Shown: one piece after another, positions 1 through 1,662 of the stretch
How the letters are laid out: every line of letters starts with the position of its first letter
Numbering within the stretch: position 1 is the first letter of the stretch
NCBI RefSeq assembly: GCF_003334385.1
Contig: NZ_QOWN01000109.1
DNA: 1,785 nucleotides
Strand: one strand, 5' to 3'
Source of the DNA: Escherichia coli
GTDB lineage: Bacteria > Pseudomonadota > Gammaproteobacteria > Enterobacterales > Enterobacteriaceae
The notes under the pieces: model-generated
Seen by the model: only the letters and a program-made list of their open reading frames with translations
The model's database searches: none
Told to the model about the DNA's origin: nothing
Program-made: the position numbers and the translations under genes

Positions 1-1662
1 AAACAGCTGGCGCGTCGCAGTACGGTGACGCCGGGTGGTGCCGCCTGTAAATATAACGACATCATTCCGGCAGACCACTGTCTGCATGATGTGCAGGATA
101 TGAGTAACCTGAATCATCCTGAAGCGGACCTTAATAAAGGGCAGTACGGTTGTGTGGGGCATGCTCTGCATGTTGCCAAAAAGCTGCTGCCGTTTATGCC
201 TGCGAATGCGGGTATCCTTCTTGTTCCATGTGGCCGTGGCGATTCGGGATTTACTGCGGGGGCCGAGGGGGCGTTTAACGAAGCGTCGGGAGCGACCGCA
301 GGCTCGTCCCTGTGGGGGGCGGATAAACCGCTGTATCATGACCTGGTCAGCAGAACCCGTGCGGCCCTGAAGAAAAATCCGAAGAACGTGCTGTTATCAG
401 TGATCTGGATGCAGGGAGAAAAAGATGTCAGTTCGGGGAGACATGCAGAACACAATGCGCTTTTCCTTGCCATGGTAAATCAGTTCCGTACGGAACTGGC
501 AGATGTGGCAGAGCAGTGTACTGGCGGGACAACGGCCAGCGTCCCGTGGATTTGCGGTGATACCACGTACTACTGGAAGGAAAGGTATGCAGCGCCGTAT
601 GAGGCGGTTTACGGTGGGTATAAAGGCAAAGCTGCGCAGAATATTCACTTTGTGCCGTTGATGACGGATGAGCATGGTGTGAATGTGCCGACAAACGAGC
701 CGTCAGAAGATCCGGACATTATCCCGGCGGGATACTATGGTGCTGCGTCACGCACTGCCAGTAACTGGACGTCAGCCGATCGTAAAACGCACTTCAGTTC
801 ATGGGCGCGAAGAGGCCTTGTTTCAGACCGCCTGGCAGGTGCCATTTTGCAGTACGCCGGGCGGACATTATCGTTCCTTACCGGGCAGAGCGCACCGCAG
901 TCGGGTGGTACAACTCCCGGTGATGATGTCAGTCCGGGGGTACCGGGTGTTGAGAAACCGCAGGATGGCGGTGTTGCTGGTACTGGTCATGATGAGGCCG
1001 TGAGCAGTACCAGGACGGTGGCTGAATATGATGCGAACAGTGGAAATGGTGTATGGACAGAGCAGCAGTGGGGGGCTGCCGGTGGCAAAGGCACTGTGAC
1101 TGATGACGGTGGACGGAAAGCGCTACGACTGGAAAAACAGCCCGGTAAACTGACGTCCTGGAAAATGTTCCGTACTGTTGCAGTGGAGGAGGCAAAAAAT
1201 CTTCTCAGCAAGGGGGGTGAAATTGCCGTACGGTTCAAAATTCCGGATGGAAGCGAACTGGTGAACGGACAGTTTGTCTTTGGTCTCTACTGGCCGGTGT
1301 CGCAGTGGGCGTCAGGCGCGGCAGCAAACAGTATGCTGGCATCATTCTTCCTTCAGACGGATGCATCAAATCTGAATCTTATGCACCACAAGGGCACGTC
1401 GAATGCACAACTGGGTACATTTGGTGCGTTTGACCATAACTGGCATACGGTTGTTTTCCGCTTTGCGGGAAATAACAGCGAAAGAGTCGTTCCGGTGATT
1501 GATGGTACAGAGCAGACGGCGTTTGACCTTGTGATGTGGACAAATGATGGCTTTACAGCAGATACGCTGACGCTGACAGATATCACGGGGGCAAAAGCGA
1601 CGTATCCTGTACTGCTTGATACGGTCACAGTCAAAGTTAACGAAAGCCGGGCATCATCATAA
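1..1662 (+). CDS. nanS-p: Prophage-type sialate O-acetylesterase (SGNH/SASA family, NanS-p-like), 5'-partial: esterase core + Gly/Pro linker + C-terminal module of unknown function
   Basis: Seen in sequence: the frame is open from nt 1 with no stop until TAA at 1660-1662 (553 codons in window). The ORF track starts at GTG 25, but that GTG has no SD upstream and the frame stays open to the edge, so the true start is most likely upstream. Motifs read from the translation: 'GILLVPCGRGDSGF' (nt 211-252, Gly-containing block II-like), 'VIWMQGEKD' (nt 400-426, the W-QGE-D/N signature of sialate O-acetylesterases), and 'DRKTHFSSWARRGLVSDRLAGAIL' (nt 778-849, putative catalytic His in the C-terminal D..H block). 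The Ser-containing block I (GQSN-type) is not clearly visible and is probably just upstream. Established knowledge: SGNH block order I-II-III-V. The prophage NanS-p assignment and gene symbol are from memory of the family, not from a search. Confidence 0.85.
   Translation, partial: KQLARRSTVTPGGAACKYNDIIPADHCLHDVQDMSNLNHPEADLNKGQYGCVGHALHVAKKLLPFMPANAGILLVPCGRGDSGFTAGAEGAFNEASGATAGSSLWGADKPLYHDLVSRTRAALKKNPKNVLLSVIWMQGEKDVSSGRHAEHNALFLAMVNQFRTELADVAEQCTGGTTASVPWICGDTTYYWKERYAAPYEAVYGGYKGKAAQNIHFVPLMTDEHGVNVPTNEPSEDPDIIPAGYYGAASRTASNWTSADRKTHFSSWARRGLVSDRLAGAILQYAGRTLSFLTGQSAPQSGGTTPGDDVSPGVPGVEKPQDGGVAGTGHDEAVSSTRTVAEYDANSGNGVWTEQQWGAAGGKGTVTDDGGRKALRLEKQPGKLTSWKMFRTVAVEEAKNLLSKGGEIAVRFKIPDGSELVNGQFVFGLYWPVSQWASGAAANSMLASFFLQTDASNLNLMHHKGTSNAQLGTFGAFDHNWHTVVFRFAGNNSERVVPVIDGTEQTAFDLVMWTNDGFTADTLTLTDITGAKATYPVLLDTVTVKVNESRASS

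Follow-up and report, generated by a model that had tools for sequence, protein, structure and literature searches.

What is the function of the low-complexity segment that separates two domains of a prophage-borne esterase in Escherichia coli? The DNA analyzed here (1,785 nt of contig NZ_QOWN01000109.1, assembly GCF_003334385.1, hereafter the window) carries the 3' part of a nanS-p gene, and an initial annotation, made without database searches, took its nucleotides 880-999 for a Gly/Pro/Thr-rich linker between two modules. We propose that this segment belongs to an intrinsically disordered tether of ~45 residues, hydrophilic and net acidic, in a three-module NanS-p prophage protein, a reading to which we give a probability of about 85%. 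The segment lies between two domains that match solved structures, has a biased composition, is predicted to lack structure and is hypervariable in both length and sequence, also among paralogs of the same genome.

The single long open reading frame (ORF) of the window is in frame +1 and open at its 5' end, and a 662-codon gene of E. coli SW070917 (L001:7674-9662), annotated as 'SASA family carbohydrate esterase', contains a stretch with 99.6% identity to the window. In this full-length gene 109 codons lie upstream of the window, which include DUF1737 and the catalytic serine of the GQSN motif, and residue 1 of the window is residue 110 of the full-length protein. A phmmer search against the PDB returned structure 3pt5 (E 2e-96 over residues 1-285), which is the 9-O-acetyl-N-acetylneuraminic acid esterase NanS/YjhS of E. 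coli, and structure 6yp6 (E 3e-48 over residues 339-547), the C-terminal domain of NanS-p (Franke et al. 2020, as cited in PMC10462455). Both assignments are matched by Pfam, with SASA (PF03629) at residues 54-167 and DUF6645 (PF20350) at residues 402-510 (nt 1204-1530, E 1e-32), and the invariant SGNH-type residues are kept in the esterase domain of the window. DUF1737 (PF08410) was found in the full-length copies, namely the SW070917 gene and homolog P0001. No NCBIfam model matched, and the PHROGs matches were all to families of 'unknown function', with none for the linker alone. Homology assigns the gene to the prophage sialate O-acetylesterases of the NanS-p type (DUF1737–SASA–DUF6645), with a predicted esterase activity. 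Members of the NanS-p family occur in lambdoid prophages, Shiga toxin (Stx) phages included, and a genome of enterohemorrhagic E. coli (EHEC) has several active paralogs (PMC8065619; PMC10462455). O-acetylesterase activity on Neu5,9Ac2 has been reported for other NanS-p alleles (PMC8065619).

The two PDB matches do not overlap and leave between them a gap of 53 residues that holds the whole segment (residues 294-333). The chromosomal NanS of K-12 (YjhS, the protein of 3pt5) has a homologous esterase domain over the same 285 residues but ends where the linker begins, and it has neither linker nor lectin-like domain nor DUF1737; the match to its 337-residue chain ends at residue 333 of that chain, in the ILQ[FY] motif. 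This arrangement fits the tether between two domains that was first proposed. The number of modules in that proposal has to be raised from two to three, as the part of the protein encoded upstream of the window comprises DUF1737 and another linker. This second linker (…GDVTTPVVVKPSDGEGTVISTTSEPE…) is also a low-confidence stretch, at residues 52-73 of the protein encoded by L001 7674-9662, that joins DUF1737 to the esterase domain; it is made of Thr, Pro, Ser and acidic residues, and the tripeptide TTP is common to both linkers.

Nucleotides 880-999, read in frame 1 of the long ORF, encode the 40 residues TGQSAPQSGGTTPGDDVSPGVPGVEKPQDGGVAGTGHDEA (the peptide originally quoted for this segment had 39, and the coordinate range adds one Ala). 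They comprise 10 Gly, 5 Pro, 4 Thr, 4 Asp, 4 Val, 3 Gln, 3 Ser, 3 Ala, 2 Glu, 1 Lys and 1 His, and none of the 40 is Ile, Leu, Phe, Met, Trp, Tyr or Cys. Gly (25% vs. 10.8% in the whole protein) and Pro (12.5% vs. 4.5%) are strongly enriched, more than twofold each, whereas the enrichment is only mild for Thr (10% vs. 7.8%) and for Asp plus Glu (15% vs. 10.1%), and the strong enrichment that had been claimed for all of them holds for the first two. The segment is the top 40-residue stretch of the protein for Gly, Pro and Thr together (19/40), and its Shannon entropy of 3.19 bits exceeds the protein minimum, which is reached one residue later, by no more than 0.01 bit (mean 3.70, standard deviation 0.17). 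An equally G/P/T-rich stretch was reached anywhere in 75 of 2000 shuffled proteins (3.75%), and G, P, T, S, D, E and Q make up 31 of the 40 residues (hypergeometric P 6e-6). Tandem Repeats Finder (TRF) found no tandem repeats in the segment and the other repeats were short and at chance level; internal repeats were rejected as the source of length variation.

The range 880-999 is slightly short at its 3' end, as the unstructured stretch extends to approximately residue 336-338 (nt 1008-1014), and 15 nt were added to it in Table 1. At the other end, the junction AGRTLSFLT begins immediately beyond the end of chromosomal NanS and falls outside the variable linker; its pattern AG[RK]xxxF[LI]xG repeats across many otherwise unrelated linker variants.

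With respect to structure, the TOP-IDP disorder propensity of the protein peaks inside the segment, centered on residue 316. AlphaFold2 was run on full-length P0001, whose linker is identical to that of the window, with an alignment of 30 sequences. At full-length residues 405-444 (window 296-335) the model has no DSSP structure and a predicted local distance difference test (pLDDT) value below 50. The means of the ten-residue blocks over full-length 401-440 were 46, 25, 26 and 22, and they include the lowest internal blocks of the model. From full-length residue 446 onward the C-terminal domain is modeled as a beta-rich fold with a pLDDT of 80-90, and a helix is predicted at full-length residues 399-403, in the junction. 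Because the alignment is shallow, the model mediocre and parts of the esterase domain low as well, low pLDDT alone would be weak evidence, and we take it as corroboration of the composition and of the domain limits given by the PDB matches rather than as independent proof.

These data also bear on whether the segment could be structured, either as an N-terminal extension of the C-terminal domain or as the last element of the esterase fold. The LSFLT at its start, which is semi-conserved and predicted to be helical, would fit such a proposal. However, chromosomal NanS folds without the segment, with its 337-residue chain aligned only up to the ILQ[FY] motif, the solved C-terminal domain begins downstream of it, AlphaFold2 gives it no structure, and the linker length goes from 16 to 64 residues across homologs. 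We regard a structured segment as almost certainly wrong.

The variation of the linker was followed in 113 homologs, nearly all of them from E. coli, in which it was measured from the conserved ILQ[YH] motif to the start of the C-terminal domain. There were 32 distinct linker sequences, of 16 to 64 residues, with an identity of 9-30% to that of the window where the esterase domains were 51-93% and the C-terminal domains 28-52% identical, and no conserved position was found in the variable core among these homologs. In comparison with the domains, the 32 variants are enriched in Pro (3.3-fold), Thr (2.0-fold), Glu (1.7-fold) and Ser (1.6-fold); bulky hydrophobic residues account for only ~1.7% of their composition, Trp, Tyr and Cys are absent, and 27 of the 32 are net negative. 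The linker of the window is unusually rich in Gly and less rich in Pro than most members of the family. The flexible interdomain tether of the initial annotation stands up to these comparisons: it fills the gap between two matches to solved structures, it is modeled as coil with a pLDDT of 22-46, and no ordered structure is predicted for a segment whose length and sequence both vary among the homologs.

Length changes can also be seen at a finer scale. Among six near-identical copies the only indel is the 9-nt GGTGATGAT, at a GATGAT mini-repeat, which is present in the allele of the window (662-aa protein, e.g. WP_222891099.1) and absent from the 659-aa alleles. Beside it lie the substitutions Q300L, V314T and G316D, so that three of the 5-6 amino acid changes are in the linker, which represents 8% of the length. 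A second case of indel-driven change in linker length is found in P0029-P0063, one allele family with linker cores of 47, 50, 51 and 56 residues, in which short Pro-rich units (such as PATET and PSPEVP) have been gained or lost near the C-terminal end of the linker. The overlapping ORFs in this region (e.g. 683-1003 on the plus strand and 868-990 on the minus strand) are unsupported, as the DNA is hypervariable and the one indel in the alignment of the six copies preserves frame 1 by its length, a multiple of three.

Paralogs within one genome were compared in E. coli O157:H7 Sakai, which has annotated prophages and served as a stand-in for the source genome; the genome closest to the window has 8 places that match it. 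The five nanS-p copies of Sakai (in Sp5, Sp6, Sp9, Sp10 and Sp15) have three linker types of 31, 37 and 33 residues, in agreement with the early expectation that paralogous copies would differ in linker length. Linkers of one type are identical among themselves, and the types are 24-34% identical to each other, versus 70-87% for their esterase domains. As a separate observation, the nanS-p gene of the Sakai Sp5 Stx2 phage (ECs_1207) has an IS629/IS1203 element inserted at the end of the C-terminal domain (L008 13835-15739, 15504-16813), and with this insertion it fits the 'CTR3' class of PMC10462455.

Several points weigh against the tether or limit it. FoldIndex, which is based on charge and hydropathy, fails to single out the segment and has its minimum centered at residue 338. 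The AlphaFold2 model comes from only 30 aligned sequences, with a mean pLDDT of 70 and with parts of the esterase domain low too. Flexibility and independent domain motion are predictions, and the model comes without an inter-domain error estimate. That the C-terminal domain binds carbohydrates is no more than a proposal in the literature. Finally, with more Gly and less Pro, the linker of the window may differ in stiffness from those of the family.

Linkers of this kind had also been described as frequent points of recombination or of length variation, and the second half of that statement is borne out by the data given above. As to the first half, the chief significance of the segment could be that of a joint at which prophages exchange esterase and C-terminal modules. 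The family does show mosaicism: in the esterase part P0027 has 93% identity to the window and P0018 76%, and in the C-terminal domain the values are 41% and 100%, respectively. In most E. coli copies the DNA similarity to the window ends before the linker, and this linker together with this C-terminal domain is carried by 36 of 5426 complete E. coli genomes. Moreover, P0019 has flanks that are 89% and 93% identical and a linker that is only 43% identical, which could be due either to fast drift or to the replacement of a small patch.

However, sliding identity places the joints elsewhere. P0027 is ~100% identical to the window up to approximately residue 230 and divergent after it, and P0018 shows the opposite pattern, mosaic up to approximately residue 220 and then 100% identical, which locates both joints at around residues 220-235, within the esterase domain and 60-70 residues upstream of the linker. 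The majority of the megablast matches stop at nt 720 or before it; of those listed, one goes as far as 836, none extends past it and none reaches 856-880. Furthermore, the linker DNA of different types is too divergent to offer homology for recombination, and the linker travels with its own C-terminal domain in every case compared. We therefore consider a role as a recombination joint to be improbable, and the recombination half of that description finds no support. The mosaic joints themselves fall at approximately 650-720 of the window, and nt 717-720 is also where many of the megablast matches to other E. coli copies stop.

A signal at the RNA level was also considered, in which a stable mRNA structure in the linker-coding stretch would pause ribosomes between the two domains. 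Positions 871-1021 have both the lowest folding energy (minimum free energy ~-67 kcal/mol) and the lowest z-score of 55 sliding 151-nt windows, with z of -2.7 and -3.35 in two sets of shuffles, and the signal is kept in the allele with the 9-nt deletion (z -2.9). That same indel, however, deletes one arm of the predicted hairpin, four other linker types lack the signal (z -1.8 to +1.4), and every gene scanned has a z below -2.6 elsewhere, with a minimum below -3.2 in four of five. No Rfam family matched in the segment. As the structure is absent from the other linker types and equally low windows occur elsewhere, it was rejected as a by-product of a GGT/ACC/CCG-rich sequence, and ribosome pausing is very improbable.

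On the reading of a disordered tether, the protein would be built of a DUF1737 capsid-binding domain, a linker, the NanS-like esterase, the linker studied here and a lectin-like jelly-roll domain. The linker would have no fold of its own and its role would be a physical one, as it would keep the esterase and a putative carbohydrate-binding domain joined while letting them move independently. From polymer scaling, its reach would be on average ~4-5 nm and up to ~15 nm when fully extended. With the C-terminal domain on a glycan, the catalytic site would be kept near O-acetylated sialic acids; we infer both the independent movement of the C-terminal domain and the glycan targeting of the esterase. 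That this domain is a carbohydrate-binding module has been proposed for NanS-p (PMC10462455; PMC8065619). Selection acts on composition and not on sequence: bulky hydrophobic residues are nearly absent, and Pro, Gly, Ser, Thr and acidic ones are favored. Because of this the linker drifts fast and tolerates in-frame indels. As it would be exposed and unstructured, it is also probably the weakest point of the protein toward proteolysis.

Glycoside hydrolases and carbohydrate esterases have linkers rich in Pro, Thr and Ser between their catalytic and their carbohydrate-binding modules (Boraston et al. 2004, as cited in PMC8065619). The linker described here resembles them as a biased, hydrophilic and hypervariable spacer, with its composition kept, that leads from an enzyme to a putative sugar-binding module. 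It differs from them in that Gly is more frequent in it than either Pro or Thr and in that the binding function of its C-terminal domain is only proposed. In addition, the O-glycosylation that is typical of the linkers of secreted cellulases would be unexpected in a late protein of a phage.

The closest comparison is with the NanS-p of phi24B and 933W (the type of structure 6yp6), for which cleavage has been described. In phi24B, gp84 (vb_24B_21) is a capsid-decorating protein that is anchored via DUF1737, and its band of ~70 kDa in fresh virions had changed to one of ~35 kDa after six months at 4 °C, and only the larger of the two bands contained C-terminal domain peptides (bioRxiv 10.64898/2026.04.10.717836). 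This preprint cites an earlier 'autoproteolysis' of purified gp84 between the catalytic and the C-terminal domain, and it suggests that SSP motifs in both gp84 linkers take part in the cleavage (bioRxiv 10.64898/2026.04.10.717836). The 933W-type protein has SSP at residues 57 and 414, and the crystallized C-terminal domain of this homolog starts at G423 (PMC10462455), nine residues past the SSP at 414. By analogy, a cleavage of gp84 between its two domains during storage agrees with a linker that would be exposed and flexible, and it is equivalent, in a relative, to the limited proteolysis that the initial annotation had named as a check.

The two types share the family, the order of three domains and the kind of linker composition. 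The linker is in the same place, directly behind the ILx[YH]-AGR junction and in front of the jelly-roll domain, and the genes occupy the same genomic place, between Q (plus stx where present) and the lysis genes. In contrast, the linkers themselves are unalignable (21% identity) and measure 53 residues here versus 31 there between the same anchors, that of the window is Gly-rich and without SSP, and the C-terminal domains are only ~45% identical. Furthermore, phage PhiR5_1, which carries the allele of the window, is lambda-like, unlike the podovirus phi24B, for which alone cleavage and capsid decoration have been demonstrated.

All this raises the possibility that the linker is a programmed processing site, in which a protein held on the virion via DUF1737 would be cut in the linker after lysis, by itself or by a specific protease; the cut would free the lectin-like domain and tune the sticking of the phage to mucus, which is compatible with a tether. 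The shift of gp84 on storage, the loss of its C-terminal peptides, the cited autoproteolysis and the start of the solved fragment so close to an SSP all favor it. However, the linker of the window has SAP, TTP and VSP but no SSP, and [ST][ST]P is found in 17 of the 32 linker variants only, so that sequence-specific self-cleavage is unsupported for this allele. The variable core has no conserved position at all, and traces of contaminating proteases would equally give a cleavage that takes months in a disordered region, so that cleavage owing to disorder is the simpler reading. In addition, virion attachment is unproven for this allele because the carrier phage is lambda-like, with a Nu1/A terminase, and not a phi24B-like podovirus. 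Taken together, we hold programmed processing to be rather unlikely, and the tether remains our preferred reading.

The coordinates of the features in the window are collected in Table 1.

Table 1. Features of the nanS-p gene in the window, in nucleotides of the window.
Feature	Position	Strand	Basis
NanS-like SGNH/SASA esterase domain, C-terminal 285 residues	1..855	+	PDB 3pt5, Pfam SASA
Semi-conserved junction AGRTLSFLT, residues 286-294, with short predicted helix	856..882	+	
Putative disordered Gly/Pro/Thr/acidic linker, residues 294-338, net charge -4	880..1014	+	
In-frame 9-nt indel GGTGATGAT, Gly-Asp-Asp, codons 307-309	919..927	+	Alignment of six near-identical copies
Lectin-like jelly-roll C-terminal domain, residues 339-553	1015..1659	+	PDB 6yp6, DUF6645, AlphaFold2
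Stop codon of the esterase gene	1660..1662	+	

In SW070917 the esterase gene is located in a lambdoid prophage, between the gene for antiterminator Q and those for holin and lysozyme. The lambda-like phage PhiR5_1 carries the same allele (99.1% protein identity), also between Q and holin, and the layout Q–nanS-p–holin is shared by Sakai Sp5, Sp6, Sp9, Sp10 and Sp15. NanS-p proteins with DUF1737 are thus present in lambda-like phages or prophages of the siphovirus type, PhiR5_1 (L002, PV340545.1, 5674-7662) and Sakai Sp15 (L010, 27169-29115), both of which carry a Nu1/A terminase and lambda-like tail genes; phi24B, the only phage for which decoration of the capsid via DUF1737 has been demonstrated, is a T=9 podovirus. 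The loop TAGYGAEF, which contains the Tyr42 anchor of gp84, has in the allele of the window a shorter and different counterpart (ITPYTLMQ).

The surroundings of the gene also gave matches to small RNAs (sRNAs). Directly after the esterase stop, a weak full-length Rfam match to Esr41, an EHEC sRNA, is found at 1668-1742 on the minus strand (20.5 bits vs. a gathering score of 102, E 0.56), which coincides with a terminator-like hairpin of the minus strand at 1676-1688 followed by a T-run and may be merely a convergent terminator; Esr41 reached the gathering score neither in the window nor in any of three related loci. No feature is annotated in the intergenic region 1668-1785, for which many E. 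coli genomes without this esterase allele show 90-99% conservation. Rfam also placed copies of the sRNA STnc100 just upstream of nanS-p in three prophages, two of them in L001 (6760-6965, 7243-7452), and AgvB, an anti-GcvB sRNA, beside the nanS-p copy of Sakai Sp9; the coordinates of the STnc100 and AgvB matches beyond L001 are 17422-17630 and 17632-17691 in L009 and 13942-14108 in L012.

Both the family and this kind of linker were already known, and an ordinary disordered tether carries little weight on its own. It does confirm the domain boundaries of an uncharacterized NanS-p allele, and it gives safe cut points for expression constructs, with the esterase up to ~394 and the C-terminal domain from ~446 in full-length numbering. 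Moreover, because its linker is unrelated to that of phi24B, has no SSP and is found in a lambda-like phage, this allele offers a natural test of whether the cleavage is sequence-specific or driven by disorder. A bolder idea, which we consider quite unlikely, is that of a slow 'fuse' on lambda-like virions such as those of PhiR5_1, in which the esterase would be held by DUF1737 and cuts in the linkers would shed first the lectin-like domain and then the esterase. The second cut would fall in the linker after DUF1737, and the length and composition of the linkers of each allele would set the timing. If true, such a fuse would switch the particle from mucus-adherent to free, extend the observation made in phi24B to siphoviruses and give a function to the hypervariability of the linker.

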